A stretch of 64,000 nt of DNA, from assembly GCA_963667175.2 (NCBI GenBank), contig CAXXXF010000014.1, positions 224,001 through 288,000 of the forward strand, written 5' to 3'. The notes beneath the pieces are model-generated. The model saw only the letters and a program-made list of their open reading frames with translations, was not told the DNA's origin and did no database searches. The first letter of the stretch is position 1; every line of letters starts with the position of its first letter. The DNA is from Candidatus Latescibacterota bacterium. Its GTDB lineage: Bacteria > Latescibacterota > UBA2968 > GCA-2709665. Shown here piece by piece: positions 2,099-58,648 of the stretch. Both the position numbers and the translations under genes were made by a program.

Positions 2099-2202
2099 CC
2101 GTTGATAAAGTCCATCCGGGCTGCCTGCCTGTGCGTTCGCACGCAGACAGGCGTCCGGCCCTTGTGGCCGAAATACGGCGTTGCCTGCCTGCAGCAGGCA
2201 GG
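2099..2202. repeat. MITE-like end (CCGTTGATAAAGTCCATCCGGGCTG) plus two CCTG...CAGG palindromes (2124-2151, 2184-2202)
   Basis: First ~55 bp match 38017-38104 once the nested 33-bp insert there is removed. Confidence 0.75.
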
Positions 2203-13966: not shown

Positions 13967-14133
13967 CGATCAGCCATTAGCTTTCAGCCGTCGGCTTGAA
14001 TCAAGAGCAACTGAATTTAAGTCTGCGCCGTGAGGAAACAGGGTCGTAACGGGCGCAGACCTCACCCCCCGGCCTGCCTGCGCCGAGACCTGCTCGGCAG
14101 GCAGGCCCCCTCTCCCGGGGGGAGAGGGGGAGC
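13967..14133 (+). repeat. Heptamer array followed by a CCCCTCTCCC element carrying a 33-bp CCTG...CAGG insert (14073-14105)
   Basis: Same array-then-element order as 567-776; an insert-free version of the host element is at 57257-57302 (rc). Confidence 0.8.
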
Positions 14134-23174: not shown

Positions 23175-23207
23175 CCTGTCTGCCGCGCGATGCTTGGCGC
23201 AGGCAGG
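23175..23207. repeat. 33-bp CCTG...CAGG palindromic element
   Basis: cctgtctgccgcgcgatgcttggcgcaggcagg between convergent genes. Confidence 0.75.
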
Positions 23208-26868: not shown

Positions 26869-26898
26869 TCACAACTGGAACAGAGAGGGCCCGTTGCC

Positions 26899-28557: not shown

Positions 28558-28664
28558 GTCTGATAGCCTCCCCTGTTGATCTGTCCCAAAAAGACGTCAC
28601 CATTTCCCACAGTTCTCTTTTTGCCTTGGATTCTTCCCCACCCCTTAACTTCCCCTATTCCCTT

Positions 28665-28775
28665 GCCCTTTTTCTTGCTTCGCCCAAGAAAAAGGGCGAA
28701 AAAGAAGGGCGCCTGCCTGCGCAACGTACTGCGCTGCAGGCAGGCCGCTCAAACGCTGCGGGGCTGCTTTTCCGC
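28665..28775. repeat. Intergenic structured element: 13-bp hairpin, nested 33-bp CCTG...CAGG (28712-28744), CGCTCAAAC
   Basis: gccctttttcttg / caagaaaaagggc perfect stem at 28665-28697. Confidence 0.6.
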
Positions 28776-29029: not shown

Positions 29030-29983
29030 TCAGCCGAACAGTTCCCGTACCCGACTCACGGCGTGGGCCGACAATGTCTTCCCGGCGGCGTTGACGATGT
29101 CATCCAGTTGTGCCGGCGTCTTCGCCCCGGGGATGACCGTGGAAACCGCGGGATTCGAAAGGACGAACCGCAACGCCGCGTCGACCATGGAATCCGCCTC
29201 CTCCAGCAGAAAATCCAGCTTTCCGACCTGCGCCGCCGTCTCTCTCACCCTCTCTGACGTGTACCTGATACTCCGCAGGTCGTCCGCGGGAAATTCGGTA
29301 CGTTCATTGTACTTTCCCGTCAGCCAGCCGGAAGCCAGGGGCACCCGCGCGATCATGCCCACGCCCTTTTCCAGCGCCGCGGGAAACAGGGCGTCGCCTT
29401 CCTTCTGCTGAAGGATGTTGTACACCAGCTGAATCGCCTCGGCGCCGCCCTCCATCGCGCGCAGTCCTTCCTCCACAACCACGTCGGAGGTTTCGACCGG
29501 ACTGATCGAAACGCCCCACGCACAAATCTTGCCCGACCCCTTCAGGTCTCTCATCAACCCGAACAGGGCGTCGGTCATGCCCTCCAGCGGCGGGCCGTGC
29601 AACAGATACAGATCCACGGTATCTCGCTCCAGGCGCGTAAGACTCGCGTCCAGCGCGCCAAGGATATACGGTTCGGAGAAATCCTGCCCCGGCGCCGCGA
29701 GACTCATCCCAACCTTGGTGCAGATCACGGCATCGTTCTTGTTTTCGTACAAACCCAGACCCACCAGCACCTCGCTCTTGCCGCGGCCGTACGCATCCGC
29801 TGTATCATAGAATGTCACACCGCGCGCCCAGGAACGGCGGACGGTGTCAATCGACCCCATGACGTCCACACCGGACCAGCCGGTGGGGCTGCCTCCCCGG
29901 AATGACGCGCCGCCGATCGGCCAGCAACCCAACCCCACTTCCGAGATCCGTATTCCCGTTCGTCCAAGTTCCCGAGACCTCAT
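29030..29983 (-). CDS. Aldo/keto reductase
   Basis: LGRTGIRISEVGLG, DTADAYG, DLYLLH, RVPLASGWL, VIPGAK. Confidence 0.9.
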   Translation of the reverse strand: MRSRELGRTGIRISEVGLGCWPIGGASFRGGSPTGWSGVDVMGSIDTVRRSWARGVTFYDTADAYGRGKSEVLVGLGLYENKNDAVICTKVGMSLAAPGQDFSEPYILGALDASLTRLERDTVDLYLLHGPPLEGMTDALFGLMRDLKGSGKICAWGVSISPVETSDVVVEEGLRAMEGGAEAIQLVYNILQQKEGDALFPAALEKGVGMIARVPLASGWLTGKYNERTEFPADDLRSIRYTSERVRETAAQVGKLDFLLEEADSMVDAALRFVLSNPAVSTVIPGAKTPAQLDDIVNAAGKTLSAHAVSRVRELFG

Positions 29984-30024
29984 CCTGCCCTCCCTCTTTC
30001 ATCAGTACGATGCCTGCGCGGGGG

Positions 30025-31209
30025 TCAATCCGCCAATGCAAACGCCTCGCGTTCCCGACGGAGCAACCCCTCCGGATCCACCCACTGACTCACCACCAGT
30101 GAAATCAACGCCAGGACCGCGCCGCTGAAAAAGATCACCTGGTAGCCGAAGTAACGCCACACCAGCCCGCCGATCAGCGGCGCAGCCACGGCTGCGAAAT
30201 GGTTCATTGTCACACCCATGGACAGCGTGGGTTTCAGGTCCTCCTGCGGCGCGATCTTGTGCAGGTACGTGGTCAGCGCGATGCCCCCGAAGAAGATAAG
30301 GTTGTCCAGGCAATATAGCACGTACAGCGTCGGACGGTGCTGAATTGCGCCATATCCGAAGAAAACGAAGGCCAGCCCGATATAGCTCCAGCTGAGCACC
30401 GCCCGCTCTCCATACATGTCCACCATCCGGCCCATCAACGGGGCCGTTAACGTAATCAGCGTCTGATTGATGAGCACGAGCGCCATCGTCGTCTCCACGG
30501 GCATCCCATGGACTTTCACCAGCGCGAAGATGGCAAACGTAATAAACATCTGCTTTCGGCAACCCTGAAGAAAATTCAGCGCGTAATACAGGCCGTAGCG
30601 GCGTCGGAACACGAAACTCTTCTCCCGAACGTCCGGGCGCCTTCTGCTGGCGAAGAAGATCGTCAGTCCGCCCAGCGCGGTGATCGCTCCCGCGCCCACG
30701 AACAGCCAGTCGTAGCGGATCAGATGGAAAACGAGATTGCAGACCCCGATGGTCAGCAGCCACGCCAGGGCATGAACGCTCCGCAACTGACCCAGCCATT
30801 TTCCTTTCTTTCCCTCGGGCGAAAACCGCAACGCCATGGACTGTTCCATGGGGATCCAGCAATGGAACCCGATGCCCCACAGCGCCGAATATACCGCGAG
30901 GGAAAACACGGTATACACGTCGGCGTACGCGGCAAGCCCGGCGCCCATCACCAGCAGGGAAACACCCGCGACGACAGGTGGCGCCACGCGCATCATGAGC
31001 GCGATGAAGAACGCATTCAGGAATCCCGACGTCTCCCGCAGGGCTTCCACGTACCCGAGTTCGTGCGGCTCGATGCCCAGGCGATCCACGGCGAAGTTGT
31101 TGTACAACGTGAGTTGCACGCCAAAGAACACGCCGACGGAAAACGCCGCCGCGGCCAGCAGTTTGAAATCCCGGTTCCATTCGGAAAACGGATTGCCGAT
31201 CCGGATCAA
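30025..31209 (-). CDS. MFS transporter
   Basis: About 12 transmembrane segments, GRMVDMYGER motif; TTG start with GGAG RBS. Confidence 0.82.
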   Translation of the reverse strand: MIRIGNPFSEWNRDFKLLAAAAFSVGVFFGVQLTLYNNFAVDRLGIEPHELGYVEALRETSGFLNAFFIALMMRVAPPVVAGVSLLVMGAGLAAYADVYTVFSLAVYSALWGIGFHCWIPMEQSMALRFSPEGKKGKWLGQLRSVHALAWLLTIGVCNLVFHLIRYDWLFVGAGAITALGGLTIFFASRRRPDVREKSFVFRRRYGLYYALNFLQGCRKQMFITFAIFALVKVHGMPVETTMALVLINQTLITLTAPLMGRMVDMYGERAVLSWSYIGLAFVFFGYGAIQHRPTLYVLYCLDNLIFFGGIALTTYLHKIAPQEDLKPTLSMGVTMNHFAAVAAPLIGGLVWRYFGYQVIFFSGAVLALISLVVSQWVDPEGLLRREREAFALAD

Positions 31210-31280
31210 TTGTGGCTCCGATCGGGGGAAGGACGTTCGGGTGTCCTGCCTTGCACATTTGACCGGACGAGAACAGAGGG

Positions 31281-31646
31281 CTAGTCCACGTCCACAACCA
31301 CGCGCACGCCGACAACGCGGACCGGGTAGACCCGCACGCGGAACCGATCGGGCTCGATCAGGGCGCGGCCGGTGGCCAGGTCGAATTGCCAGCCGTGCCA
31401 GGGGCAGGTCAGGATTTCGCCCACGCGGCCGTAGGTGATTTCCTCGCCGGGACGGCACGGCAGGGCGGTACCGCCCACGTTTCCGGCGGACAGCGGGGCG
31501 CCCTGATGGGGACAGATATCGCGCAACGCGAAAAACCGGCGGCCGCGTCGGACCACCGTCAACGCCCTCCCTCCCGCTGCCACCCGACGTGGCCGGCCGG
31601 GCCCGAAGTCCTCAACTGACCCGATATCGATTGTCTTCAAGGCCAT
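31281..31646 (-). CDS. Rieske [2Fe-2S] ferredoxin
   Basis: CPHQG and CPWHGW. Confidence 0.9.
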
Positions 31647-32733
31647 AGAAAGCCGCCGCGTTTTCGGACAGAATGCGTTGTCTGAGGGCGCCTTTGATGA
31701 CCCGCGGCAGGGCCCGGTCCGGGGCGTCGAAGTCCCAGTGGGGGTAATCGGTGGCAAACATCAGGAAGTCGTCACGCCCGATCATATCCAGAATGGACAG
31801 CAGGTGCCGCGTATCGGCGGGTTCCTCCATGGGCTGCGTCGTGGCGCGGAAGTGATCCAGGATGTATTCGCTTGGCAGCCTCCGGAGCCAGGGCACTTCG
31901 CCGCGCAGCCCCCGGTAGTTCTTGTCCAGCCGCCACATGAGCGCCGGAAGCCAGGCAAATCCTCCCTCGATGAGGGCCGCCCGGGCGAACGGCAATTCCT
32001 CGAAAACGCCTTCGCATACCAGGCTGATGACCTGGGCTTCGAAGGCCTGCGACATTCCCGTGTGATCCTCGATATAGTAGGACGGCCAGCCGCTGGCGGT
32101 AATGGGATTGCCGCCGCCGCCAAAGTGGATGCCTACCGGCAGGTCGGCGGCAGCCGCCGCGCGAAAGATGGGCCTGAATTCGCGTCGGCCGTAGGGGGCG
32201 TATGAGCGCACGAGCAGCAGCACCTGTACGAAGCGACGGTCGACGGCGAGGCGCTCGATCTCGGCCGCGGCGGCCTCTGCGTCCTGGATATTGACGACGA
32301 TGGAGCCGCGCCAGCGCCGGTCGGCGTCAAGCCATGCCTCCCGGGTCCATTCGTTGACCGCCCGCTGCAGCGCGTTGGCAAGGTCGATATTTCGCACGGA
32401 CGACACCGCGACGAGCGGGTTGAGGACCGCATAGTCGATATCCCACGTGTCGAGCAGTTGCTCCCGGGCGAAATCGGCGTCTGTCCCCGGCTTTTTTCCG
32501 TTTGACGGCCACGCGTCGCGCCGGGCGGCCTGGGCATAGAGCTTCGGATAGATTGAAACCGACGGGATCGTAAACCCGGACTGCTTCACGTACGCCTGCC
32601 ACCGGCTCGACAGATGGGGCAGGAGTTCGTCGATGCAGTCGGGATAATTGTGGACGTCCGCGTCGATCAGGGTCACATCGGACTTTCGGCCGTTTGTCGC
32701 CGGCGCCTCGGATTCCGCGGTTGTTCGTACCAT
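31612..32733 (-). CDS. Amidohydrolase_2 family protein
   Basis: [30 protein letters not shown]. Confidence 0.9.
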
Positions 32734-32773
32734 GGATCGTTCCTTTACGCAAACGAGCGATGAGCGAATCGTG

Positions 32774-33715
32774 TCAATTCCCCAACGGCTCCCACACGGC
32801 GCCGAAGATGTGTCTCAATCGCGCCATGTCTTCGTCCGGCAGCGGCGGCCCGAGAATGGCCTTCACGTTGGCTTCCAGGTGTTCGACGTTCGCCGTGCCC
32901 GTAAGCACCGTACCCATCGCCGGATGGGACGCCACGTATTTGTATGCGGCGGCCGGCAGCGAATTCACGTGTCCCTTGACGAGCCAGCCCAGCGGATCCT
33001 CGTCCGGCACCGAATCCCTCTTTATCAGCCCGTTCTCCTTCGCGTAGGCGATGCGCTCGGCCAACACCTCCGGCCTGCTCAGCGCCCGGCGTACGGCCAC
33101 CATACAGATCACGCCCACGTTCTTTTCCAGGCACATCGGCAGGACGCTGTGCTCCGCCGTGGGACTGATCATGTTGTACCCGACCATTGCCGTATCAAAA
33201 TGGTCGTCAGCCAGCGCCATTGGAAACATCTCGTGTCGGGGATCCTGTGAATACGTCTCCGATACGCCCAGAAAGCGGAATTTCCCCTGCTCCTGCAGGC
33301 GCGTCATCACCGGCAGAAAGATGTCGATCGTGCGGGCGTAATCTTCCGGCTTTACGCCGTGAAACTGCATGATGTCGATCACGTCCACCCTGAGCCGCGC
33401 AAGACTTCGCTCCACGGAGGCGACCACGTCTTCGGGCCTGGCGGTGCGGTCGTCCCGCGCCACCTGTACCTTTGTGGCCAGCACGTAGTCGTCCCGCGGC
33501 ACGGCCGCCAGCGCCCTGCCGAGAATGGCCTCGCTTTCCCCGTACCCCGCGGCGGTATCGAAGAAATTAACACCCAGTTCCAGCGCCCTGCGCACCATCC
33601 GGCCGGCATCGGCCTCCGGAACGCCGGAACTCTGTCCGAATTGACTCGGGCCGCCCGTTCCGATGCCCAGCGCGGAAACGCGAAGACCGGTTCGTCCAAG
33701 CGTGCCGTATTTCAT
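32774..33715 (-). CDS. Aldo/keto reductase
   Basis: [25 protein letters not shown]. Confidence 0.88.
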
Positions 33716-34150
33716 ACAGGTATCCCCCGGAATTCGCGCTTTTTATGGCTATTGTCCCACTGTGCCGGTTTGCCGCGAAAAAACACAGGCCACAAAGGGC
33801 ACCAACACACAAGAGTTCACACCTGTCCAGGTTCGTCTTCTCCGAATTATGCTGGACGGCAGTGACTATTTATCAAATATGGCGCCAACCGTCAAGCGCT
33901 TCGGCAAGCGACGACTGACTGATTCCCGGCGCTGACCCCGGTTTCCGAGCCCCCGGGCCCTGCCGTCCCGGCGGTCCAAATTACGCTTGCGGATTCACCT
34001 CGCTTTCGAAATACTGATGTGCCGGTCATCGGTACCTCTTCGATGCCCGCGCGTGCGCAAACGGCGCCTCTGACAACTTCCCGCGCGTGGATGATCTCCT
34101 GCACGAAAGGGAACATCCGCGTTGGGTGTCACAGATAACAAGGAGCGCAA

Positions 34151-37100
34151 GTGAATCTCTACACACCGGAACAGATCCGACTCGCCCGGCAACGCGCGGC
34201 GGCTGACCCCGACGCGGAAAAAGTCGCCGGGCGTATCATTGAAGACGCGAATCCGTGGCTGGAGCGGGACCAGGACTTCATCCGTACGCTGATGCCCGGA
34301 CCCGAAATACCGCGGAGCTGGACGATCAACTTCGTCAGCGGGTGTCCCGTCCACGGCAGCGGACCCGACGGTTACGGCGGGTATGCGCAGGGCGGGTGGA
34401 TACACGACCCCTTCACCGACAAATGGCGCGTGACATGCGCCGTGGGCGGCGAGTCCTATCCCAGCAACGACTTCGAGGCGTTCTACCAAAGCGGCATGGA
34501 AGACCGGAGCCTGCTCACCGGACCCTACGCGGACGACGGATGGGGCTGGCGGGGCGAAAACGCGCCCTTTCGGCACTGGTTCATCGCCTATTGCTGTTGC
34601 AGTACGTGGAACGCCGTCGTCGCCGGCCTCACCTCACTCTCGCAGGCTTATCTGCTCAGCGGCGACTGCCGGTACGCCCACAAAGCGCTCGTCATTCTGG
34701 ACCGACTTGCCGAGGTCTATCCGCACATGGACTACAGCAGGCAATCCATGTACGCGCTGGAGTTCTCGCCGGGCTATACGGGGAAGATGAACGACCTTAT
34801 TTCCGAATCGGGCACCGTGCGCCGGCTGTGCCACGCCCTGGATGCCGTCCGCGGCGCCATCCCGTACGACCCCGTCTTCAGTTCGGACGCGGACGGACTC
34901 CGCCGAAAAATCGAGGCCGGCATTATCGGCGCGAGCCTCGAAGGTATCTACCGGGGCGACGTCCGAAGCAACTACGGCGGCCACCAGGAAGCCCTGTTGA
35001 TCGCGGCACTCGCCTCGGGAGACCGGAATGAAATCGAAAAAGCCGTCGACTGGACGATGAACAACACCGGTGAAGCCACGGAACTCAAGGAAATGCTCAC
35101 CCATTTCGACGGGTACATCTTTCGCGACAAGGCCGCGCACGCGGAAGGGATCAACTTCGCGCTGGACAACCTGATCTTCCGTGAGGGCATGGGCTGGGAG
35201 AGTTCCCCGAGCTACAACAGCAGCTGGGTCGCGCACCTTACCGTGATCGCCCGCCTGCTGGAAGACCAGGGCATTCGGCTCTGGGACAGGCCGAAGTTCA
35301 GGCGCATGTACCGCTGGGCGGCGGAAATGACCTGCCTCGACCGCTTCACCCCGTGCATTGGCGACGCCGGCGCCACGACGGGCGGCTACGTCGCCCCTGG
35401 AAGCGATACCCTGCAGGAGGCGTACAGAGCCACGGGAGACCCTTTCGTCGGCGAACTGGTGCGAAGGGAGAAAACCGGCTTCAACAGCTTCGAATCGCTG
35501 CTGGAAGAACCTGTTGAACCTTCACCGAACGCCGACGGCGCCGCTGCACTCAGAGAAATAAATGCCGGAAGCCGTCTCATGGGAGGTTTCGGCCTGGCCC
35601 TGCTGCGGTCCGGGCGAGGCCGTGAACGAACCGCTGTTGCGCTGTACTACGGAAGGGCGGCCACCGAGCACGCGCATTTCGACCGTCTCAACGTCGAACT
35701 CTTCGCGTACGGCCGAAAGCTCATCCCCGACCTCGGTTACGGCGAACACGCCGCCGAGGGCGACCGACCCGCGGTATGGACCAAGAACACCCTGGCCCAC
35801 GCAACGGTCGTCGTGGACGGCCGGCGGCAGGATACACAGGGGCCAGGCAGGCTGGAGCAATTCGTGAGGGCGGGAGACCTGACCTGGGTGCAGGTCGACG
35901 CACCGGAAACCTATCACCATACGTCCGAGTACCGGCGGACGCTCGCGCTCATCGAAGTCGGGAAGGACGCCCGCTACGTCCTCGACGCCTTCCGGGTGGC
36001 GGGCGGGACGCGGCACGACTACAGCCTGCACGGATTCGAGGGCGAGTTCGCGGCGGACGATGTCGCGCTCACCCCTCCGCAGCAGCAGGGCACACTGGCA
36101 GGTCCGGAAGTGCCCTACGGCGCCATATATGACGACGACGGCCTTACCGACCCGCTGAAGAAGGGCCGCTCGTATTATACCTACCGGGGCGGCGGATACT
36201 CGTATCTGTACGATGCGCAACGCGGTCATCCGATCGCGGCGTGGTCCTCGACGTGGCGCGACCCGAAGACCGGCATCGGCCTGAGTACGACGTTCCTGCC
36301 CTCCGAAGAAGCGATCGTCGCCCACGGTGACCCACCCAGAAAACCGGGCAATCCGAAGCAACTCACCTGGGTGCTGCTGCGCAACGAAGGGCAAGGCGCG
36401 GTCAGCCGCTTTGTGGCTGTACACGAACCCTTTAGAGGCGAAAAGAAAATCCAGGGCGTCGAACAACTGGATGCCGGCGGCGATACCCTCGCGCTGAAGG
36501 TAAGACATCGAACCGGCGAAGATACGGTCCGCCACGCCCCCGGCCCGTCCGGCGGCAGCTTCAGTCTGGCCCGTCACGACACCGAGGGAAGGCTGGTTTC
36601 CCTGCACCAGTCAGGCTCCGGATGCATCAGTGCCGGTGGGCATTCCCTCTCCATTGAAAAGCCTGTGCAGGGAAAAGTCGTGGAAATCGATCCGGGGTCT
36701 TCCTCGATTACCGTAGAACGCGCCCCCGGGAGCCAGGCCTTTCGCGCAGCGGGTCTCAGGGGTGAGGTCGCTCGCATCGGGAACCCCCGCCGCGCCACCG
36801 CCTACAATATCACGGCCGTGGAAGGCAAGGGGCGGCGTTATCGCATCCGGTTCGGCGACGACAGTTTCCGAATCGGCCGGTTCGAGATTACCGGGCGCAA
36901 CCCCGATGGATCAGGCCTGTCCACCAAAACGAACCTGTATATGGCGGCGCAGGGATATTATCGCGGCGCCTGGCTCACGGACAAGGACCACGCGGTCTGG
37001 CTGCCCGTTGACGACGTTACGCTCGCGCCTCACAGCCCCGGCGTGCGGCGCGATGCCGGCATCCGGCTGGTGGGCAGACACCTGTCTGCCGCGCCGGGCG

Positions 37101-37303
37101 CCTGTCTGCGTGCGGGCGACAGCACGCACAGGCAGGCGGCACAGGCAGACGACCTCGCCGCGAGGTTCAACGTCGGCGAGATTGCCTATCTTTACGACGT
37201 CGGGCCGGGAGACACGGTAGCGGTCACGCCGACGGCCACGGCCACCAGGCAAAGGGACGGGCGATTCCGAATCCGGTCCAACTGCAGGGCGACCCTGGAC
37301 TGA
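34151..37303 (+). CDS. Large heparinase II/III-like (polysaccharide lyase fold) protein containing an in-frame repeat insertion
   Basis: ESSPSY, IGD, HAHFDRL, IPDLGY, HATVVVDG, YRRTL; GTG start with AAGGAG RBS. Confidence 0.75.
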   Translation: MNLYTPEQIRLARQRAAADPDAEKVAGRIIEDANPWLERDQDFIRTLMPGPEIPRSWTINFVSGCPVHGSGPDGYGGYAQGGWIHDPFTDKWRVTCAVGGESYPSNDFEAFYQSGMEDRSLLTGPYADDGWGWRGENAPFRHWFIAYCCCSTWNAVVAGLTSLSQAYLLSGDCRYAHKALVILDRLAEVYPHMDYSRQSMYALEFSPGYTGKMNDLISESGTVRRLCHALDAVRGAIPYDPVFSSDADGLRRKIEAGIIGASLEGIYRGDVRSNYGGHQEALLIAALASGDRNEIEKAVDWTMNNTGEATELKEMLTHFDGYIFRDKAAHAEGINFALDNLIFREGMGWESSPSYNSSWVAHLTVIARLLEDQGIRLWDRPKFRRMYRWAAEMTCLDRFTPCIGDAGATTGGYVAPGSDTLQEAYRATGDPFVGELVRREKTGFNSFESLLEEPVEPSPNADGAAALREINAGSRLMGGFGLALLRSGRGRERTAVALYYGRAATEHAHFDRLNVELFAYGRKLIPDLGYGEHAAEGDRPAVWTKNTLAHATVVVDGRRQDTQGPGRLEQFVRAGDLTWVQVDAPETYHHTSEYRRTLALIEVGKDARYVLDAFRVAGGTRHDYSLHGFEGEFAADDVALTPPQQQGTLAGPEVPYGAIYDDDGLTDPLKKGRSYYTYRGGGYSYLYDAQRGHPIAAWSSTWRDPKTGIGLSTTFLPSEEAIVAHGDPPRKPGNPKQLTWVLLRNEGQGAVSRFVAVHEPFRGEKKIQGVEQLDAGGDTLALKVRHRTGEDTVRHAPGPSGGSFSLARHDTEGRLVSLHQSGSGCISAGGHSLSIEKPVQGKVVEIDPGSSSITVERAPGSQAFRAAGLRGEVARIGNPRRATAYNITAVEGKGRRYRIRFGDDSFRIGRFEITGRNPDGSGLSTKTNLYMAAQGYYRGAWLTDKDHAVWLPVDDVTLAPHSPGVRRDAGIRLVGRHLSAAPGACLRAGDSTHRQAAQADDLAARFNVGEIAYLYDVGPGDTVAVTPTATATRQRDGRFRIRSNCRATLD
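37081..37149. repeat. Nested CCTG...CAGG elements (33 bp outer + 36 bp inner) inside the CDS
   Basis: Outer 37081-37100 plus 37137-37149, inner 37101-37136; 69 bp total, frame preserved. Confidence 0.85.
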
Positions 37304-37340
37304 AAATCCGCCTGCAGTCGTCTCGACAGTGGTCTTTCCG

Positions 37341-37425
37341 TTCTGTGCATTTTGTGCTTTTTGTGGCGATTGTTCGTATTGACCGGCAAATGCAATAGCC
37401 ACAAGAGGCACAAAAACACAAAAAA
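37341..37425. repeat. Back-to-back inverted pair of 9-bp-period C-type repeats (GCCACAAAA/GGCACAAAA)
   Basis: ttctgtgcattttgtgctttttgtggc ... gccacaagaggcacaaaaacacaaaa; related copies near 33789 and 58456. Confidence 0.65.
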
Positions 37426-37592
37426 GACCACACCTGTGTGAAGTCGTCTTATCCGTGATTATGGTCATCAGTGAAGGGAATTATAACCCAAAGTCACATT
37501 ACTTCGTCAATACCCGAAAGTTCGAAATATATACTTGACAAGACATACAATCTCCGGTACTTTTCCAGTATACAAAACCGGAGGTTGCCTTG

Positions 37593-37835
37593 ATGAATAC
37601 GAAGTCGATTTTCAACGCCGACAACTTCCGCATGGCTATCTTCCTGCTTACCCTGATAGGTTCGACATGGGGTACGATGTGGACTTTTTCCTCAAGGCTC
37701 GAAGACAAACTCACGAGACGAATTGACAGATTGGAAGACAAGATAGACACGAGGTTTGATAAGATCGAAACCCGCCTCAATTCCTTTGGTGAACGTATTG
37801 CCAGAAATGAAACACGTTTGGACGCCTTGAAATAG
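37593..37835 (+). CDS. Small transmembrane plus coiled-coil protein (DUF1640-like)
   Basis: GGAGG RBS, TTGACA upstream; hydrophobic helix then RLEDKLTRRIDRLEDKIDTRFDKIETRL repeats. Confidence 0.7.
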   Translation: MNTKSIFNADNFRMAIFLLTLIGSTWGTMWTFSSRLEDKLTRRIDRLEDKIDTRFDKIETRLNSFGERIARNETRLDALK

Positions 37836-38016
37836 ACCCCCGCCTTACCACCTGCCATCCTTCAAGCCATACCGAAAATTCCCTATCGCTTTTTCCTGTT
37901 CCGATCCACGGTGTTCAATTCCATGTCCATAACCACCTCCCGCGCCAACTTTTGCGTGGTGTCAATGCTCACCTCTACTTCCATCTCCGGCTTCGGGGGA
38001 CCGTACCCCTGACACC

Positions 38017-38162
38017 CCGTTGATAAAGTCCATCCGGGCTGCCTGTCTGTGCGTGTCCGCCTGCCTGCGCAGTGCCCTGCGCTGCAGGCAGGCACGCAGA
38101 CAGGCGCGTTTTGTCTTCGACCACAATAGATCGGCCTCGCCTGCAGAGCGACTTTTCAACGG
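38017..38162. mobile_element. MITE-like unit with CCGTTGA(T)AAAGTC inverted ends and two nested CCTG elements
   Basis: 38017-38030 vs gacttttcaacgg 38150-38162; left part repeated at 2099-2153. Confidence 0.7.
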
Positions 38163-38201
38163 ACTGCGAAGCCAAATATGACTTTGGGTTACCTACTAAA
38201 T

Positions 38202-38233
38202 AAAGGGCGGCCGGGTTCTCCCGGTCGCCCTTT
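38202..38233. terminator. Rho-independent terminator
   Basis: aaagggcggccggg-ttct-cccggtcgcccttt downstream of the minus-strand gene. Confidence 0.75.
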
Positions 38234-38256
38234 TCGTTTGCGCGTTTGAATGTCCG

Positions 38257-39075
38257 CTAACCTGAACCGCGCAACGCGGTGAAGAACCGAACGTCGGCCC
38301 TGGCCAGGTCGATGACCGTGTCCACCGGCTCCCCGCTGTACTCGCTGTGGAAGCTCAGGGGTCCGTCGAAGTTCACCGCCCGGAACGCGCGCAACAAGGC
38401 AGGCCAATCTCCGAACCCCTCGCCCAGCCGCACCACCCGCGCGCGCCAGCTCAATTTGCCGTTCTGCAGCAGCGGCTGGCGGATCAGGTCCTTGAGCGCC
38501 ACAACGGACAGATGCGACCTGACGATGTTCAGCGCCAGTTCGATCGGCTCTCCGCAGACGGAAAGATGCCCGGGGTCGGCAAACACGCCGATATGCCGCG
38601 GATCGAATCCCTTTACCGCGTTCATGGCCGCGCACGAGTTCAGGCCCATTGACAACCCCGAGTGATTGTGCACCACGGTCTGGACCCCGTGTCTCTCGGA
38701 GAGGGTCTGAAAGCCTTCGAGATGCTCCCGGACCGCGTCCAGTTCTTCCCAATAGTCCATCCCCGCGGACCAGTGCCAGTATCCCAGCTTGACGTGATTC
38801 ACGCCCGCTTCGCCACAGGCCGCGTACAGGCGCTCCGCGTAATCCATCTCCGGCCTGGTAAAGTCGCCCGGCGTGGTGACCAGGGGAATGGAAAGCCCTT
38901 CATCGGCAAACCGCCTGGCGGCGTCGGGCAGCGCGGTTTCCACGTTCTCCGGATGTACCGGATAGCCCGGGCGCACGCACAGGTCGGCGCCCTCTACGCC
39001 GACCGATTTCAACGCGCCGATGATGCCGGACACGTCCAGGCCCTCCAGGTGTTTCGTAAACATGATGGTTTTCAT
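38257..39075 (-). CDS. Sugar phosphate isomerase/epimerase (xylose isomerase-like TIM barrel)
   Basis: MFTKHL, DLCVRPG, HNHSG, DPGH, ALKD, LGEGFGDW, SFHSEY. Confidence 0.85.
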   Translation of the reverse strand: MKTIMFTKHLEGLDVSGIIGALKSVGVEGADLCVRPGYPVHPENVETALPDAARRFADEGLSIPLVTTPGDFTRPEMDYAERLYAACGEAGVNHVKLGYWHWSAGMDYWEELDAVREHLEGFQTLSERHGVQTVVHNHSGLSMGLNSCAAMNAVKGFDPRHIGVFADPGHLSVCGEPIELALNIVRSHLSVVALKDLIRQPLLQNGKLSWRARVVRLGEGFGDWPALLRAFRAVNFDGPLSFHSEYSGEPVDTVIDLARADVRFFTALRGSG

Positions 39076-39507
39076 TGGGTTTCTCCATCGGTATGCGACG
39101 GGCTTCTCTTATTCAGAAACCGATCAGGATTTTCAGGATTAACAGGATGGACAGGATAAGAACGAAAAAAACACGAGAAAGGCACGAGAAAACGAGGAAC
39201 GGCAGTGAATCGATTCACCACAGACCGCGCGTGGTCAATCCGGCCAACCTGACACCCCAACACTGCGCCGGCCAGCTCGATTCCAAATTCTTGAAGGTCT
39301 TCGTTACATTCTCCGCTAATGTTATTAAAAATTAGGGGCTTATATACTTAACTTGACAGCGTGATTTTGGGGTAAATCATTACGGAATTAATAGATAGGA
39401 GGTCGTCCTGACGGTGTTTTGGTGGCAAGGGGGGGTTCATCTGGAACCTGAATCACAGGAGGAGACTGAGGCGTTGTATCTATTGACTCATACGCTTTTT
39501 CAAGAAT

Positions 39508-48799: not shown

Positions 48800-48825
48800 A
48801 GGATCTCCTTAACCTGAATAATTCA

Positions 48826-50535
48826 CCTAAGGCGGCTTCGCTTTGCTCAGCCGCAACCAAAAAGGTGGTAGTCAAGAGCAGTTTGTTTTGTGGTATGAAA
48901 AACGGCGTTCGTCCTTTATGATGGTGGTCCCAACCGCCATCAACCCAAGGAGGAACGCCGTGAACGACTTCGTGGACCAATATAATGAAAAAATCAGTGG
49001 CGTGGTATCGTGTTTTGATCGGGTTTTGTTCAAGGGGTACCTGCCGCTGGGATTTGGCAATGCGATGGAGCGTTTCATGGGTAATCAGGGTTTTTTGTTG
49101 AAGGACTTCAAGCGTTTTGTGACGTCGCATTCCAAAACGATCAAAGCCCACGCGGAGGCGGTGGCGAGCAGGCACAAGCGCCCGTTCCTCTATCTCGACC
49201 GCAACACCGTCAGGAAAGAGGAGGAAGCGCGACGCATCGCCCAACGAGATGGGATCACCCGCGGCCTGGTCTGTGTGTTCCGCGCCGTGGAAGGCTGTCA
49301 GAGTTTCAAGCTGGTTCCAGGGGAAGGAAGGCCTCGCCTGCTCAACGCCCGGCGGAAGTGCCTGTGCTACTACTTCTACTATATCGACCGTGAGTTCGGG
49401 TTGCTGCATATCCGCATCCAGTCCTGGTTCCCCCTGGTGGTGCAGGTCTGTCTCAATGGCCACGAATACCTGGCGCGCAAGCTCGATAAAAACGGCATTG
49501 CCTATGAAAAAGCAGACAACGCGTTTCTATGGATCGACGACGTGGCCCGGGCGCAACGCTTTGCCGATCGTTTTGTCGAGAAGAATTGGCCGCGCATTCT
49601 CTCCGGGCTTGCCCGCAGGGTCAACCCCCTGCTCAAAGACCTGCTTTCGGGAATGGACTATTACTGGGTCGTTGACCAGGCTGAGTTCGCCACCGACGTG
49701 ATGTTCACAAGCCCCCACGCCCTGAAGGTGCTGTATGAAAATCTGCTCAGACATACGGTGCTGTGCTTCTCCCCCCAGGACATCCTGACCTTCCTGGGAC
49801 GCAAACTCCACGGCAACTTTCAGGGCGAAGTCCTCACGGACTTCAAAAACAAACGCCAACCCGGCGCACGGGTCAAACACCGGATGTGTGAGAACTGGAT
49901 GAAAATGTACGACAAACACGGGCGCGTACTACGCATAGAGACAGTGATCAACCATCCAAGGCAGTTCAAGGTCCGCCGCTGGGGCATACGCCAAGGACAA
50001 CGCGTGATGGGCTGGTATCCCATGGCCAAAGGCGTGGCCAACCTCTACCGCTATCGGGAAATCTCATTGAAGGCCAACCAACACTACCTTCATGCGCTGG
50101 CAGCAGCACCAGACACCGCGAAGAGCCGTCACAGCCTCACCACACTTGCCCGACCACGCAGGCACAGGGGGCGTACCTATCGGGGCTTCAATCCCGCCGA
50201 CACCCGCGACCTCGACCTCTTCACCGCCGTCCTGAAAGGCGAACACGCCCTGATGGGCTTCCGCAATCGGGACATCCGAAAACACCTCTTCAAACAACCC
50301 AGAACCCTCGACCAGCGCCGACGGCAGGCCAACGCCGTCAGCCGACTTCTCAAACGCCTACACGTCCGAGGCCTGATCGCCAAAATCCCACGGTCCAGAA
50401 GATGGCGCGTCACACAGGCCGGACACGTCACACTCGCGACTTCACTGACACTATACCACAAGCACACAAACCCTATCCAAGCAGCATGAACAAACTTCTA
50501 CGCATCTTGCGTTGAAGTCTTACTGTAAGACTCTA
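48826..50535 (+). mobile_element. Putative IS-like element with terminal hairpins and no terminal inverted repeats (boundaries approximate)
   Basis: gcggct / agccgc hairpin at 48832-48854; agtcttac-t-gtaagact palindrome at 50516-50532; single large basic ORF. Confidence 0.55.
48960..50489 (+). CDS. 509-aa transposase-like protein with KMYDK..LRIET motif and C-terminal winged helix
   Basis: AAGGAGG RBS before GTG 48960; SCFDRVLFKG, YYFYYIDREFG, GHEY, KMYDK, GFRNRD, LKRLHVRGLIAKIPRSRRWRVT. Confidence 0.7.
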   Translation: MNDFVDQYNEKISGVVSCFDRVLFKGYLPLGFGNAMERFMGNQGFLLKDFKRFVTSHSKTIKAHAEAVASRHKRPFLYLDRNTVRKEEEARRIAQRDGITRGLVCVFRAVEGCQSFKLVPGEGRPRLLNARRKCLCYYFYYIDREFGLLHIRIQSWFPLVVQVCLNGHEYLARKLDKNGIAYEKADNAFLWIDDVARAQRFADRFVEKNWPRILSGLARRVNPLLKDLLSGMDYYWVVDQAEFATDVMFTSPHALKVLYENLLRHTVLCFSPQDILTFLGRKLHGNFQGEVLTDFKNKRQPGARVKHRMCENWMKMYDKHGRVLRIETVINHPRQFKVRRWGIRQGQRVMGWYPMAKGVANLYRYREISLKANQHYLHALAAAPDTAKSRHSLTTLARPRRHRGRTYRGFNPADTRDLDLFTAVLKGEHALMGFRNRDIRKHLFKQPRTLDQRRRQANAVSRLLKRLHVRGLIAKIPRSRRWRVTQAGHVTLATSLTLYHKHTNPIQAA

Positions 50536-50547
50536 AACATTAACTAA

Positions 50548-52525
50548 GTAGAGTCGAGATGTGGCGCGGTGGTTTAGGAGTGGCCTATCTGTTTCCGCCC
50601 CTTTCGTCTGGCGGTGCCTCAATAGCCGCTCCGTGCTCCGTTTCCACGTCCCGCTCATCGAACCGGACGTGCGGATTTACCGCATCCGGCTCTCGGACAA
50701 GGAGTCATGCGTTCGCCCACGGAAGGTTGCGCGCCTGTACTTCCAGCCGGGTCAGGCCCAACGTGTTGTAGAGGACCTGGTCGTGGAAGCGTGACCTTCC
50801 CTTTCCCGGTATTCGGTACTTGTTGCACAACCACCAGCGGAGCCGTTTCCGGGTGTGGCTGTCCACACTCCGATAGGCTTTGCTGGCCAGACCAAGACGG
50901 AAGTAGTTGCCCCACCCTGCCAGCATTCGGTTCAGGTGGGCAATCCGTTCTTGATGGTCTTTCAGCAACCACCGGCGCGCCGTTGCCTCGCTGATGGCCC
51001 GGCAGATGTGCCGGATGGCCTTCTTTGCCGGGCGCGTGCCGATATAGGCCTTTCCCGTCTTTGGCGAGTAACAGCGGCCGATGGTGTAGCCCAGAAAGTC
51101 AAATCGTCCTTCCGGGAGCGTGCATATGCCCGTCTTCTGCTCGTTCACCGTCAACTTAAGCGCTTTCATGATGGATCGCATCGCACGCATCGCTTCTTCT
51201 GCACTGCCGCGACAGCAGATCACAAAATCATCCGCGTAGTTGACAATATGAGCCTCCAGACGTTGCTGATGTCCCCGAAATTGCCATCCCAGAATGAACC
51301 GCCGCATATACAGGTTCGCCAACAGCGGGGAGATCGGGGCGCCTTGCGGTGTCCCCCTTCCCTGATCCTTGTTCGGCGTCGCTCGACGTTTGCGGCCCCG
51401 CTTGTCGGTCTCCTCAATCGGCGCGGTCAGCCACAGCTTGATCAGGCGCAGCATACGCCCGTCACTGATGCGTCGCGCCACCGATTTCATCAACTCGGCA
51501 TGCGGGATCGTGTCGAAGTAGCCGCTCAAGTCGGCGTCGATCACCTGCGTATGGCCGCGGCTCACCAGACTGTGAACCGCATTGATGGCGTCGTGCGCAC
51601 TCCGTTTTGGGCGATACGCATACTGTTCCGCCGGCAGGTCCGCCTCAAAGATCGGCTCCAAGACCAGCATCGCCGCGGTTTGCACCACCCGATCCTTCAC
51701 CGTCGGGATGCCCAACGGCCTTTGCTTCCCGTTCGGCTTGGGGATATATACCCGACGGATCGGAGACACCCGATACGATTTGCTCCTTACGGCTTCCGAC
51801 AGTTCGCCTAACCACCGCTTTTGCCCGTATGACTCGATATCCGCAAACGTCTCGCCGTCCGCGCCCGCCGCGCCGCCGTTGGCCTTGCAGCAGCGGTACG
51901 CATAAAGCAGGATGTCCTCGCGATATACTTTGTCATACAGCGCGTAGAATCGGTAGCCGGGCGATTCCTTCGCTTTGGCATGCAACGTCTTCTGCAACTT
52001 CCGAACCTTTTCCGGAGGTCTTAGGCTCATGCCAATCTCCAGGCTCTCGCTCCTTTGACGTTGCCCTTGAACCAAGGCCCCTTCCCTCCACCGGCATTAC
52101 CCGGCTTCTCGGGTACTACGGGCCTCTCCGCCACCCCACACGGCCCGGCCTGACCCTCACGGGCGTCCGGTTGGTGTCTTTACACCACCGAGGGGGCTTC
52201 CCGTGTTGCGTCGGAACTCCTTGTATACGTGCCTTCGCCATTACCCCGGCGGGACCGTTGGATGCGCGCGTTGCTCTCTTTTTCCAACGACGGCGGCCTT
52301 CCCCGATCCATGGGCGGGTCGGCTCCCGCATTACCTTTTTCGAGGCCTGCTCAGCGTTCACTCACGTTTCGGCCCGCATACTCGCCAGGTCGCCTTGCGA
52401 CCCTCTACACCGGAGGCTTCGGAGATGTCGTTGCCTACGTCCCCGCTCCGATTGCTACCGACCGCAGCAACACTTGTCGGGTGGGACTCTCACCCACTGA
52501 AGTTCCGCGCCTTTTCACGGCGCAC
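50548..52525 (-). mobile_element. Group II intron (1978 nt) encoding an RT/maturase
   Basis: 5' GTGCG at 52525, domain V GAGCCGGATGCGGTAAATCCGCACGTCCGGTTC, 3' CGACTCTAC at 50548. Confidence 0.95.
50705..52030 (-). CDS. ltrA: Group II intron reverse transcriptase/maturase lacking an endonuclease domain
   Basis: RPLGIPTVKDRVVQ, DADLSGYFD, GTPQGAPISPLLAN, YADD, FDFLG, GWGNYF; ends after the X domain. Confidence 0.96.
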   Translation of the reverse strand: MSLRPPEKVRKLQKTLHAKAKESPGYRFYALYDKVYREDILLYAYRCCKANGGAAGADGETFADIESYGQKRWLGELSEAVRSKSYRVSPIRRVYIPKPNGKQRPLGIPTVKDRVVQTAAMLVLEPIFEADLPAEQYAYRPKRSAHDAINAVHSLVSRGHTQVIDADLSGYFDTIPHAELMKSVARRISDGRMLRLIKLWLTAPIEETDKRGRKRRATPNKDQGRGTPQGAPISPLLANLYMRRFILGWQFRGHQQRLEAHIVNYADDFVICCRGSAEEAMRAMRSIMKALKLTVNEQKTGICTLPEGRFDFLGYTIGRCYSPKTGKAYIGTRPAKKAIRHICRAISEATARRWLLKDHQERIAHLNRMLAGWGNYFRLGLASKAYRSVDSHTRKRLRWWLCNKYRIPGKGRSRFHDQVLYNTLGLTRLEVQARNLPWANA

Positions 52526-52628
52526 CATGGATGGGCAGGATGAACAGGATAAAGACCAAAGAGCAGGACAAATGCTCACGATTCCGGGCAAAACCGATGG
52601 ATCCATACCTCCGTCCGCGGCGCCACAC

Positions 52629-56307: not shown

Positions 56308-57087
56308 ATGAACAGTGACGCAACAGACACAGCCGTCAGCGAACGCGACGACCGGATTGCGATCGAAATTACAGACATGCACAAGTGGTTTGGCAAGTTC
56401 CACGTCTTGAACGACATCAATCTCACCGTCGAGCGCGGAGAAAGAATCGTCATCTGCGGTCCCTCGGGCTCCGGCAAGTCAACGCTGATCCGCTGTATCA
56501 ACCACCTGGAGGAACATCAACGCGGGCGCATCACGGTTGACGGTATCTCGCTGACCGACAATCTGAAGAATATCGCGAACATCCGGCGGGAAGTCGGCAT
56601 GGTGTTTCAGCAGTTCAATCTGTTTCCCCACCTGACCGTCCTGGAAAACTGCACGCTGGCGCCAATCTGGGCGAGAAAGATGCCTAAACGGGAGGCTGAA
56701 GAAACAGCGATGCGGTATCTGAAGCGAGTACGGATTCCGGAACAGGCGTCGAAGTATCCCGGGCAACTGTCGGGCGGTCAACAGCAACGGGTCGCAATCG
56801 CCCGCAGCTTGTGCATGAACCCGAAGATCATGCTATTCGACGAACCCACTTCGGCGCTGGACCCGGAGATGATCAAAGAAGTGCTTGACGTGATGATTGA
56901 GCTCGCGAAAAGCGGCATGACCATGCTGGTGGTCACGCACGAAATGGGATTTGCAAAAACCGTCGCCAATCGCGTCATTTTCATGGACGAAGGGCGAATC
57001 ATCGAAGAGAACAGTCCGGACGAGTTCTTCGACAATCCAAAAAACGACCGGACAAAGCTGTTTCTCAGTCAGATACTGACACAATAA
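56308..57087 (+). CDS. aapP: Amino acid ABC transporter ATP-binding protein
   Basis: [28 protein letters not shown]. Confidence 0.93.
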
Positions 57088-57302
57088 AGGAAGAAGGAAG
57101 AAGGGAAAAGGAAGAAGGAGGAAGGAAGAACGAAAATGTGTTGGTGACTATTTCGTTTGTGACGACCGTAATCGGAGTCTCATACGAGACCTACTCCCTA
57201 TCCCCCTTCCCGGGGGGAAGGGGGGAACTTTCATCCCTTGAAGTATGCCCGGTTCTGCTCCCCCTCTCCCCCTGGGAGAGGGGGCCGGGGGGAGAGGTCT
57301 GC
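57087..57302. repeat. Purine heptamer array (AAGGAAG) plus two CCCCT...GGGG palindromic elements
   Basis: aaggaagaaggaagaagggaaaaggaag...; elements at 57191-57228 and 57257-57302. Confidence 0.7.
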
Positions 57303-57315
57303 ATCCCGCCCAACG

Positions 57316-58371: not shown

Positions 58372-58404
58372 AATGAATCTCCCTCCCACGTTTGGAAACC
58401 ACTT

Positions 58405-58573
58405 AAAAACTACGAAACACGCGAAAAAAACGAAAAATCCGTAGCTGAATTCAATGGCCGCAAGAGGCCTGCATGCAGCGCCTGTCTGCCTGCCTGCAGC
58501 GCAGGGCACTGCGCAGGCAGGCGTACACGCACAGGCAGGCAGGGCACTGCGCATGCAGGCGCAAAACCACAAT
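58405..58573. repeat. A-type nonamer repeat plus a C-type repeat interrupted by triple-nested CCTG...CAGG elements (58468-58559)
   Basis: Inner 58489-58521, middle 58481-58539, outer 58468-58559. Confidence 0.85.
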
Positions 58574-58648
58574 GTGGCACGTCAGCCTGGCAATGCCGCA
58601 ATTTTCATCATCGTTGGCGCCCCAACGGGGCATGGCGTGGCAACCGTC

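Follow-up and report, generated by a model that had tools for sequence, protein, structure and literature searches.

Ultrashort, self-nesting hairpin elements, probably mobile, in a Candidatus Latescibacterota genome and in other phyla

RESULTS

A three-level nest in the bamA-skp spacer

The stretch of DNA analyzed here (the window; 64,000 bp) is C14:224001-288000 (GenBank contig CAXXXF010000014.1) of the 5.52-Mb draft genome of a Candidatus Latescibacterota bacterium (G000; assembly GCA_963667175.2; 18 contigs), and our subject is a family of very short palindromic elements in it, of the form CCTG...CAGG, which occur alone or inside one another and are very probably discrete mobile units. Three of them are nested between two open reading frames (ORFs) matching Omp85/POTRA and OmpH in Pfam, in what we refer to as the bamA-skp spacer. 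The features of this locus (window coordinates; no strand assigned) are as follows.

58398..58645: insertion in the bamA-skp spacer; 248 bp, a repeated host element of about 145 bp plus the nest
58468..58559: outer element and whole nest; the outer element is 33 bp (58468-58480 + 58540-58559), with variant termini CCTGCATG..CATGCAGG, and the nest is a 92-bp, three-level one
58481..58539: middle element (58481-58488 + 58522-58539); 26 bp after removal of the inner element
58489..58521: inner element, CCTGCCTGCAGCGCAGGGCACTGCGCAGGCAGG; 33 bp, type I with a 4-nt loop, found by motif match and dissection

The original prediction, made from the letters of the window, had placed three nested copies at 58468-58559 and had noted a compensatory change between the outer and the inner one. 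Dissection by script bore out both points: the nest resolved into 33 in 26 in 33 bp. Relative to the inner copy, the outer one carried two changes only, at position 6 (C>A) and position 28 (G>T), and these positions are pairing partners (C-G to A-T). The nesting was not perfectly clean, as the middle unit was 4 bases (CGTG) shorter than its 30-bp type II relatives (CCTGTCTGCGTGCG..CGCACAGGCAGG), a family with 19 genome copies at one mismatch or fewer. A 33-mer identical to the inner element was present in 2 further unrelated contexts of the genome. Folded as single-stranded DNA, the inner element reached -14.4 kcal/mol (z = -3.36) and the whole nest -36.6 kcal/mol (z = -3.77). The "nonamer repeat" said to surround the nest was present, but it proved to belong to the host element of about 145 bp, which was found without the nest (..GCCACAAGAGG^CGCAAAACCACA..) on contigs C4, C10, and C18. 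The spacer carries a near-perfect 92-bp palindrome plus a repeat within what is probably one transcription unit.

Copies in the window and in the genome

A search of the window for CCTGYCTG-N3-25-CAGRCAGG gave 9 matches, against 0.01 expected, and 0 of 100 shuffles reached 9. All five 33-bp copies named beforehand were recovered, and together with the interrupted hosts (the outer copy at 37081, the host at 38042, the middle copy at 58481, and the outer copy at 58468) the matches made up the predicted minimum of 12 copies. The further features of the window (no strand assigned) are as follows.

2124..2151: 28-bp type II element; site 3 of a host MITE (miniature inverted-repeat transposable element) with terminal inverted repeat (TIR) CAGYCCGTTGAAAAAGTC; motif match
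2184..2202: 19-bp minimal form, termini plus a 3-nt loop; site 2 of the same host MITE as 2124-2151
14073..14105: 33-bp type I element inside the repeat ..cctctccccccgg^ccccctctccc..; motif match
23175..23207: 33-bp element between convergent ORFs, with A^C flanks; motif match
28712..28744: 33-bp type I element within a different repeated host sequence; motif match
37081..37149: nested pair; outer 33 bp (37081-37100 + 37137-37149), inner 36 bp (37101-37136)
38042..38104: type II host with type I insert; 30-bp host (38042-38059 + 38093-38104) with a 33-bp element (38060-38092) inside

The outer 33-bp copy that had been reconstructed at 37081 exists, but its end reads CAGGCAGA and not CAGGCAGG. 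The filled repeat at 14055 was correctly paired with an empty form at 57257 (reverse complement): the host repeat of 14073-14105 occurred empty at about 57240-57290 of the window and 8 to 11 times in the genome. The second proposed pair, 38042 against 2124, was mistaken, since it set a 30-mer host beside a related 28-mer of a different family; genuine empty 30-mers exist elsewhere. The nest at 38042-38104 folded at -28.3 kcal/mol (z = -6.12). That at 37081-37149, of 23 codons, sits close to the 3' end of a heparinase II/III-like ORF (34151-37303, + strand; by translation and Pfam) and is in frame with it; the ORF thereby gains 11 or 23 residues. In an Rfam scan of the window, the hairpins matched no family at gathering score, and group II intron models alone were matched.

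In the whole genome, the motif CCTGYCTG...CAGRCAGG was present in 281 copies (19 to 41 bp), versus 0 for a backward control pattern. Copy lengths were modal, at 33 bp (81 copies), 19 bp (51), 30 bp (36), 28 bp (32), 20 bp (17), and 36 bp (15), so that the 33-bp mode noted in the window held genome-wide. The copies fell into multiple sequence families that had only their 8 to 9 terminal bases in common, namely, the TIRs CCTG(C/T)CTGC...GCAG(G/A)CAGG. Type I elements (about 33 bp) consist of CCTGCCT (a 7-bp outer stem), a GC bulge of 2 to 3 nt, a variable inner stem of 6 bp, a loop of 3 to 5 nt, and AGGCAGG. In type II elements (27 to 30 bp; CCTGTCTGCGTGCG..CGCACAGGCAGG), position 5 always shows a T:G wobble on one strand. 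Copies in genes were a minority: 78 of 281 lay in stop-free frames of at least 300 codons, mostly near the frame ends, though such frames make up 76.5% of the genome. Crude gene calling (overcalled, with 87% of the sequence "coding," and thus a rough hint) placed 66 of the 281 copies between codirectional genes, 32 between convergent genes, 18 between divergent genes, and 165 "in gene." Several copies were located in cotranscribed spacers or 5' leaders. Singlets accounted for 178 of 219 clusters, and same-family inverted doublets for 0 of 49 adjacent pairs. CRISPR repeats were rejected as an explanation, as the copies were mostly singlets and the recurring spacings of 32, 36, and 54 bp were fixed positions in one host repeat.

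A covariation analysis, proposed as a check in the original prediction, was carried out on 66 distinct 33-mers from many taxa in an ungapped alignment. Of its cells, 94.8% paired, and 24 were double changes, compared to 6.2 ± 2.0 in shuffles; 0 of 500 shuffles reached 24 (the sequences are related, so that this count is no probability), and slid controls were far lower. Because the search itself fixed the 9 columns at each end, these are uninformative; the signal came from pairs 12-24 to 15-21. Single-stranded DNA fold z scores of the units ranged from -2.0 to -6.1. Judged by the covariation, the fixed GC bulge, and the fixed one-strand T:G wobble, the structure rather than the sequence of the interior appears to be what is conserved.

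Nesting

When the 268 innermost copies were removed in silico, 30 outer elements were reconstituted (17 of 33 bp and 11 of 30 bp). Of these, 22 were identical to stand-alone copies and 6 more were within two mismatches of one; a second round of removal gave one further element. The insertion point in resident copies was the stem-loop boundary (e.g., CCTGTCTGCGTG^CGGACACG), which is thus a frequent target and gives rise to the "Russian dolls." In Thiorhodospira sibirica, a cultured host from another phylum (see below), 5 of 20 loci were self-nested at GACGCA^CGCGG, and 10 of 20 lay in one other repeat.

Exact boundaries and quantized host sites

For 141 of the 281 copies, an exact empty paralogue (the 12 + 12 flanking bases joined elsewhere in the genome) was found. 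Excision offsets of (0,0), (-1,-1), and (+1,+1) fitted in 118, 115, and 107 cases, respectively, and other offsets were not common; three offsets are common because a blunt CCTG...CAGG insert between G and C is ambiguous. With copies flanked by A^T, (0,0) excision alone fitted, and the element is therefore exactly CCTG...CAGG, with no target duplication. A 2-bp "GC" target duplication failed for the 49 of 162 distinct contexts that were not G^C and for 20 of 20 T. sibirica loci. The expected bias towards insertion between G or A and C held genome-wide: the base at -1 was G or A in 150 of 162 distinct contexts (G in 133) and that at +1 was C in 129, while G^C was found in 113 of 162, compared to a genome-wide share of 8.6% GC dinucleotides. 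In 63 loci of the same register among the cross-phylum matches listed (see below), position -1 was a purine in 49 and position +1 a pyrimidine in 55. Gain or loss is thus exact and blunt, without target duplication, and mostly at purine^pyrimidine (G^C in the genome of the window).

The host MITE with TIR CAGYCCGTTGAAAAAGTC was occupied in quantized steps. Its site 1 held 0 bp (51 copies), 30 bp (8 copies), or 63 bp (5 copies), the last being a 30-mer containing a 33-mer; site 2 held 0 bp (24 copies), 19 bp (37 copies), 33 bp (4 copies), or 58 bp (1 copy), from three different elements; and site 3 held 0 bp (62 copies), 28 bp (27 copies), or 54 bp (1 copy). The 19-mer CCTGCCTGCCGCAGGCAGG of site 2 equals the 33-mer of that site less its inner 14 bases, and 19- and 20-mers alternate with 33-mers at other hosts too. 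For these reasons, the 19- to 21-bp class probably represents collapsed relics of 33-mers rather than proven movers. Copies are carried passively on larger repeats; the same 33-mer was also found in at least 3 unrelated contexts of the genome.

Polymorphism between relatives and between samples

Two relatives, G009 and G012, are 92 to 95% identical to the window and syntenic across all of it, and clean empty orthologous sites were present in them upon alignment. The 248-bp block 58398-58645 was absent from both, with the flanks abutting and a bamA-skp spacer of a few bases, as was the 69-bp nest 37081-37149, at gacA^Cgacc. The composite that includes the elements at 2124 and 2184 (host MITE plus elements) was wholly absent, and the 33-mer at 23175 was also absent, with an unrelated 13-bp segment in its place. 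In G009, the gap matching 28712-28744 contained an empty copy of the host repeat. Apart from these elements, the spacers 57087-57305, 32745-32773, and 28608-28971 of the window and the corresponding gaps in G009 and G012 hold other repeat families (e.g., ggtgagacgtaagacgggagacgg.. units and cccctctcc..ggagagggg hairpins), and the three genomes differ at almost every spacer.

Over 22500-39500, we aligned contigs of four public runs in which the window is present, and clean empty sites were found here as well. A contig of run X2 lacked exactly 69 bp at 37079/37149 and a contig of run X1 lacked the inner 36 bp only, at 37099/37136, in each case with 255 matching letters on each side; an X2 contig also lacked exactly 33 bp at 38058/38092 (side, 145). 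Filled and empty forms were present at depths equal to those of the flanks in independent runs. The locus 37081-37149 thus exists empty, with the outer element only, and with outer plus inner element, as stepwise insertion predicts. Two further differences were not relied on, namely, the lack of 33 bp at 28710/28744 in two contigs of X2 and one of run X3, which is weaker as the sides are only 27 to 30 letters, and a "replaced" 77-bp joint at 38054-38132, which probably stems from other repeat copies.

Distribution across phyla and phages

Among 41 relatives, copy numbers ranged from 0 to 281 within one genus. In 140 genomes of the phylum, 69 had at least one match, and 9 (eight of the window's family and one of a sister family) had at least 66 copies. 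When one genome per species was scanned for exact matches to CCTGCCTGC-N15-GCAGGCAGG, at least 114 loci were obtained, and the titles of the matches listed came from more than 10 phyla. Candidatus Latescibacterota metagenome-assembled genomes (MAGs) made up 14 of 80 titles among the matches listed, with element-plus-flank sequences like those of the window. The other taxa among the matches listed were Verrucomicrobiota, Lentisphaerae, Kiritimatiellae, Planctomycetota, Methylomirabilota, Nitrospira, Patescibacteria, Omnitrophota, Elusimicrobia, Bacteroidota, Chloroflexi, Desulfobacterota, Thiorhodospira sibirica ATCC 700588, and a Pelomicrobium isolate. A bulged two-stem register was common to 63 of 114 among the matches listed. 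Whole-genome counts were 51 in T. sibirica, 32 in a Lentisphaerae MAG, 28 in a Desulfarculaceae MAG, and 12 in Pelomicrobium, and types I and II cooccurred in these other-phylum genomes.

The same 33-mers and 27- to 30-mers recurred in many phyla, in phage contigs, and in cultured T. sibirica. Viral contigs accounted for 16 loci, about 11 of them typical, and some stood at the identical site in related phages. The backbones of the hosts differed between phyla and the mini-elements alone matched; a conserved larger unit across phyla was accordingly rejected. The family is not lineage specific, and near-identical sequences in many phyla and in phage contigs imply horizontal spread. A search of PLSDB plasmids with a 33-mer gave no convincing match (best E value, 0.3).

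Two side observations concern similar sequences. At viral loci L164, L165, and L168, in related phages, the 33-mer abuts a GGAGGA-like ribosome-binding site 5 to 10 bases before an ATG, and the hairpin there could occlude or expose translation initiation. Genome G104, of the same class as that of the window, had 55 matches to the backward pattern (GGACRGAC..GTCYGTCC) and 0 to the real one, which looks like a separate hairpin family whose termini are mirrored.

DISCUSSION

Proposed mode of spread

That the elements are discrete mobile units, as the original prediction had it, is a conclusion that we draw with high confidence from the exact empty sites, the quantized insert lengths, the nesting, and the polymorphism between close strains, including the outer-only state. 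On balance, we favor the reading that they are nonautonomous ultrashort hairpin elements (27 to 36 bp, with collapsed forms of 19 to 21 bp) that are moved in trans, probably by an enzyme of HUH type. Its parts differ in strength. We lean slightly towards a single-stranded hairpin as the moving form, because 27 to 36 bp is too short to circularize as a duplex and the hairpin alone is conserved. The HUH class of the enzyme, taken on its own, is a tentative and somewhat doubtful assignment; it is favored because duplication-free insertion is also typical of IS200/IS605, RAYT, and Helitron chemistry. In such a mechanism, the hairpin strand would be cut at G^CCTG and CAGG^C and would be pasted into single-stranded target DNA by a HUH/Y1-type nuclease-ligase supplied in trans, which may be an off-target RAYT or be carried by a phage or plasmid. 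The bolder proposal of a hairpin transposon of about 30 nt that is pan-bacterial and spreads horizontally, carries its own recognition site only, and is served by an enzyme class new as a transposase (other than the cognate RAYTs, a group II reverse transcriptase, or TnpB), is possible but rather unlikely.

Several observations weigh against movement in trans by an HUH-type enzyme, or against parts of the evidence for it. No enzyme tied to the elements was found in the window, as had been predicted, and the same was true of the whole genome. Canonical IS200 TnpA was absent from the genome, where the 3 PF01797 matches were all RAYT-like. The orientation of the elements relative to GC skew showed no bias (30 versus 31 and 17 versus 14 for the strand defined by the wobble; 20 versus 21 and 11 versus 20 for that defined by the bulge, in a test blurred by copies carried on larger repeats), and this counts because an IS608-like lagging-strand mechanism would predict a bias. 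A tetra- or pentanucleotide target of the IS200/IS605 kind was not seen at the insertion sites, which showed an R^Y preference only. The flanks of 20 T. sibirica loci were A^A, C^C, A^C, A^T, and G^T, with G^C in 0 of 20, so that G^C is a local preference and not a requirement, and blunt insertion is what is general. Insertion at palindrome centers was minor (14 of 162 contexts with flank stems of at least 5, versus 3.3% of random G^C sites) and was rejected as a general rule. A shifted-excision control, scored by pattern only with the interior left free, gave 13 to 30 pattern matches at every shift; because the motif pattern leaves the interior free, the nesting argument rests on the identity figures and on the quantization of the host MITE. 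The runs were compared through assembled contigs in place of reads, and the window itself may derive from one of them. Finally, any single-site polymorphism could formally be a loss and not a gain.

Alternative explanations

The alternative closest to known biology is that the elements are ordinary repetitive extragenic palindromes (REPs) of a REP/REPIN-RAYT system and are moved by a resident RAYT (REP-associated tyrosine transposase). We regard this as unlikely. Size, hairpin shape, copy number, and a mainly extragenic position do fit REPs. RAYT-like Y1 genes number at least six in the genome and fall into three types (C7/C8, C3, and C12), and the stems of the REPs linked to them share CCTGCC/GGCAGG with the termini of the elements. 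However, REPs have a conserved unpaired GT(A/G)G (or CGTC) head, by the available text of PMC2817692 and PMC3733652, and no such tag was found here, the flank logos showing just G at -1 and C at +1; the GTAG-headed REPs of the genome are other sequences. A RAYT gene is described in the accessible part of PMC2817692 as flanked by two cognate inverted REPs, and each RAYT type in the genome was flanked by a REP of its own (GTAGGGGCAGGTTTSAAACCTGCCCCTAC, CGAGGGCAGGGATGCCCTCG or GTAGCACAAACTG...), distinct from the CCTG hairpins, for which reason the RAYTs were rejected as cognate partners. The same holds in other genera, where the C3-type RAYT keeps its GAGGGCA..TGCCCTC REPs (11, 2, and 5 hairpins in G009, G016, and G007, respectively). 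A C3-type homologue is present in T. sibirica (42% identity over 184 amino acids), which counts in favor of a RAYT, but with yet another REP.

The cooccurrence of the elements with RAYT genes, another proposed check, gave a divided result. At the level of genomes, there was an association: C3- or C12-type orthologues (at least 66% identity) were present in 8 of 9 genomes with at least 66 copies and in 2 of 32 with 23 copies or fewer (one of the two with a stop codon). These genomes are kin, however, so that the association is not independent, and repeat-rich genomes may simply keep both; moreover, G024 has 120 copies and no C3- or C12-type gene, and G008 has a C7-type RAYT and 0 copies. At the level of loci, a CCTG core was found within 1.5 kb of Y1 genes at 0 of 8 loci in G024 and G041 to G044, and an element was near 1 of 6 further RAYT loci. 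The RAYT genes of G000 were 245 bp to 29 kb away from the nearest element; the RAYT at C7:62896-63498, with elements 245 bp and about 430 bp away, and one in G009, with an element 10 bp past its stop codon, are the cases that speak for a link. The REPIN replicative unit is an inverted doublet in the text available of PMC3116915, whereas here singlets prevail (178 of 219) and inverted same-family doublets are lacking (0 of 49). REPIN-RAYT systems pass on for the most part by vertical inheritance, according to the portion available of bioRxiv 10.1101/2022.05.22.493013, whereas the present elements cross phyla.

Two features of the RAYT genes were seen in passing. Those at C7:59528-60130 and C7:62896-63498 carry their own REP (GTAGGGGCAGGTTTSAAACCTGCCCCTAC) inside the reading frame, where it encodes ..VGAGLKPAPT... 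Frames of 1,203 to 1,441 amino acids with a C3-type RAYT-like domain were found in G007, G009, G011 (two), and G016, 10 to 14 kb from the short C3-type gene, and may be a fused or read-through form.

An RNA intermediate, in which a transcribed hairpin is reverse transcribed into DNA, is quite improbable in our view. Elhai et al. in 2008 reportedly proposed an RNA intermediate and a reverse transcriptase for the SDR elements of cyanobacteria. Here, the T:G (in RNA, U:G) wobble of type II lies on one strand across phyla, several copies lie in cotranscribed spacers or 5' leaders, and the genome has about 10 group II introns with a reverse transcriptase and about 15 ORF-less derivatives, all of which would suit such a route. 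DNA hairpins also tolerate T:G wobbles, however, and the elements have no poly(A) or other tail and no 5' truncation but insert at full length, in quantized steps. Of the 9 high-copy genomes, 4 (G006, G009, G015, and G024, three of them single-contig assemblies) yielded no group II maturase domain in a survey that covered group II reverse transcriptases alone, and G016 had a weak maturase remnant only; the group II reverse transcriptase was rejected as the enzyme on this ground. The window itself holds an ORF-less group II derivative at 20083-20850 (- strand; G009 and G012 lack the 758-bp copy) and a full group II intron with a reverse transcriptase/maturase at 50541-52581 (- strand), which abuts an IS-like element at 48817-50540.

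The elements might also have no mobility of their own and be passengers of larger repeats that are subject to precise hairpin deletion (by slippage or cruciform resolution) and gene conversion. Many copies are indeed passengers, and the empty paralogues of 141 of 281 are owed to hosts that are themselves repeats; 37 of the 51 19-mers stand at one site of one host MITE, and the 19- and 20-mers look like tip deletions of 33-mers of the same site. The arrangement G|C...G|C provides 1 to 2 bases of microhomology at both junctions, and the resolvase RusA cuts 5' of CC, which stands at both element junctions. Yet A^T, A^A, and C^C junctions offer no microhomology, identical 33-mers stand in unrelated unique contexts, one host site is occupied by three different elements, and unlike host backbones carry the same elements in different phyla. 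One of these unique contexts is inside a conserved ORF, with no interruption there in two sister species and one strain, and deletion is unable to create copies. We therefore judge this explanation to be very improbable. An assembly or sequencing artefact is a negligible prospect: assemblers may stumble over palindromes and the window is part of an 18-contig draft, but the same nests and families are present in single-contig relatives, a cultured isolate, and viral contigs, and independent runs reproduce the filled and the empty forms at flank-equal depth.

Other candidates for the mobilizing agent were rejected one by one. TnpB had a single locus in the genome, with no CCTG core within 3 kb. 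Of the IS110 copies viewed, 0 of 7 lay in or beside the elements. A long autonomous element with the same ends was sought among 6 candidate pairs, none of which was repeated, the best spanning ordinary ORFs. The 1.72-kb IS-like family "D" was not found in the four other-phylum hosts and had fragments in the copy-free genome G008. As an observation apart, the IS-like repeat at 48817-50540 of the window (+ strand; 1.72 kb) has 12 genome copies, ends CTAAGG...CTCTAA, no TIR, and subterminal hairpins; its ORF of 510 to 552 amino acids had no Pfam or NCBIfam match and more than 3,900 metagenome homologues, mostly on contigs of about 1.7 to 2.2 kb, and the repeat is an unclassified, widespread transposable element.

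Significance

To our knowledge, how REP-like hairpins multiply has been an open matter for forty years, and the transposition of such small units in vivo has hardly been caught. The present elements offer a clean handle on this spread through their exact boundaries, their quantized states, and the outer-only intermediate allele. The occurrence of the same element in many phyla points to a portable mechanism and not to a quirk of one lineage, and since T. sibirica is a cultured, nonpathogenic host with a recent burst (51 near-identical copies), the mobilizing activity can be tested. The elements remodel operon spacers (bamA-skp), add 11 to 23 residues in frame, and create long perfect palindromes, and they get in the way of assembling genomes from metagenomes and of annotating the repeats in them. 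Should the enzyme prove new, a 30-nt unit cut and pasted seamlessly would be of interest for genome-engineering tools; if the pan-bacterial transposon of about 30 nt were real, it would be the smallest mobile DNA known.

Comparison with known systems

IS200/IS605, IS91, and Helitrons transpose as single strands by HUH enzymes, without target duplication, and insert beside or between fixed nucleotides; IS200/IS605-type elements have two different subterminal hairpins, a target of 4 to 5 nt, and a replication strand bias. The elements described here resemble these three groups in duplication-free insertion and in a hairpin signal, and a single-stranded intermediate could fit 30 nt. They differ in that a single hairpin makes up the entire element, the target is no more specific than R^Y, no strand bias was seen in the blurred comparison with GC skew, and no cognate TnpA was found in the genome. 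Like MITEs of the DDE kind (e.g., Correia/NEMIS and Nezha, as treated in the available sections of PMC3733652), they are nonautonomous and have TIRs, burst-like copy numbers, and a patchy distribution; MITEs, however, are 70 to 300 bp with target duplication, whereas these elements are 19 to 36 bp and blunt, and the genome has no longer element with the same ends. With the Rickettsia palindromic elements (in the same partial source, PMC3733652) they share palindromes in frame inside protein genes, but the Rickettsia elements are longer and lineage restricted, and here the genic copies are a minority (at most 78 of 281).

In common with REPs, they are GC-rich imperfect palindromes of 20 to 40 bp that occur by the hundred per genome, mostly extragenically, with occasional in-frame copies; REPs are thought to move as single-stranded hairpins via an HUH Y1 enzyme, as far as the available texts of PMC2817692, PMC3116915, and PMC3733652 go. 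Unlike REPs as those texts portray them, they have no head and no RAYT-flanking inverted pair, and they are singlets, nest in themselves, and are nearly identical across phyla. Among literature listings and abstracts, we found no bacterial description of these motifs or of such palindromic repeats in Latescibacterota, though supplements could list untagged families.

The closest likeness in behavior is to SDR1 to SDR8 of cyanobacteria, which Elhai et al. reportedly described in 2008 as dispersed repeats of about 21 to 27 nt forming hairpins with compensatory changes. These SDRs are said to insert into their own copies, into mini-transposons, and into tandem short repeats and to be confined to one cyanobacterial subgroup (Nostocales), and we know of no enzyme for them. 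On present evidence, membership of the present elements in the SDR family is unlikely, given their noncyanobacterial hosts by record titles among the matches listed. SDR5 inserts precisely between the 3rd and 4th bases of HIP1, in the part available of PMC4390886. By the reported SDR features, our elements resemble SDRs even more than REPs in tiny size, exact insertion, and self-nesting, a likeness in how they work and not one of membership. Set against the same features, they stand apart through an apparently unrelated sequence, 8- to 9-bp TIRs, a range that spans phyla and phage contigs, and a three-state polymorphism at the level of strains.

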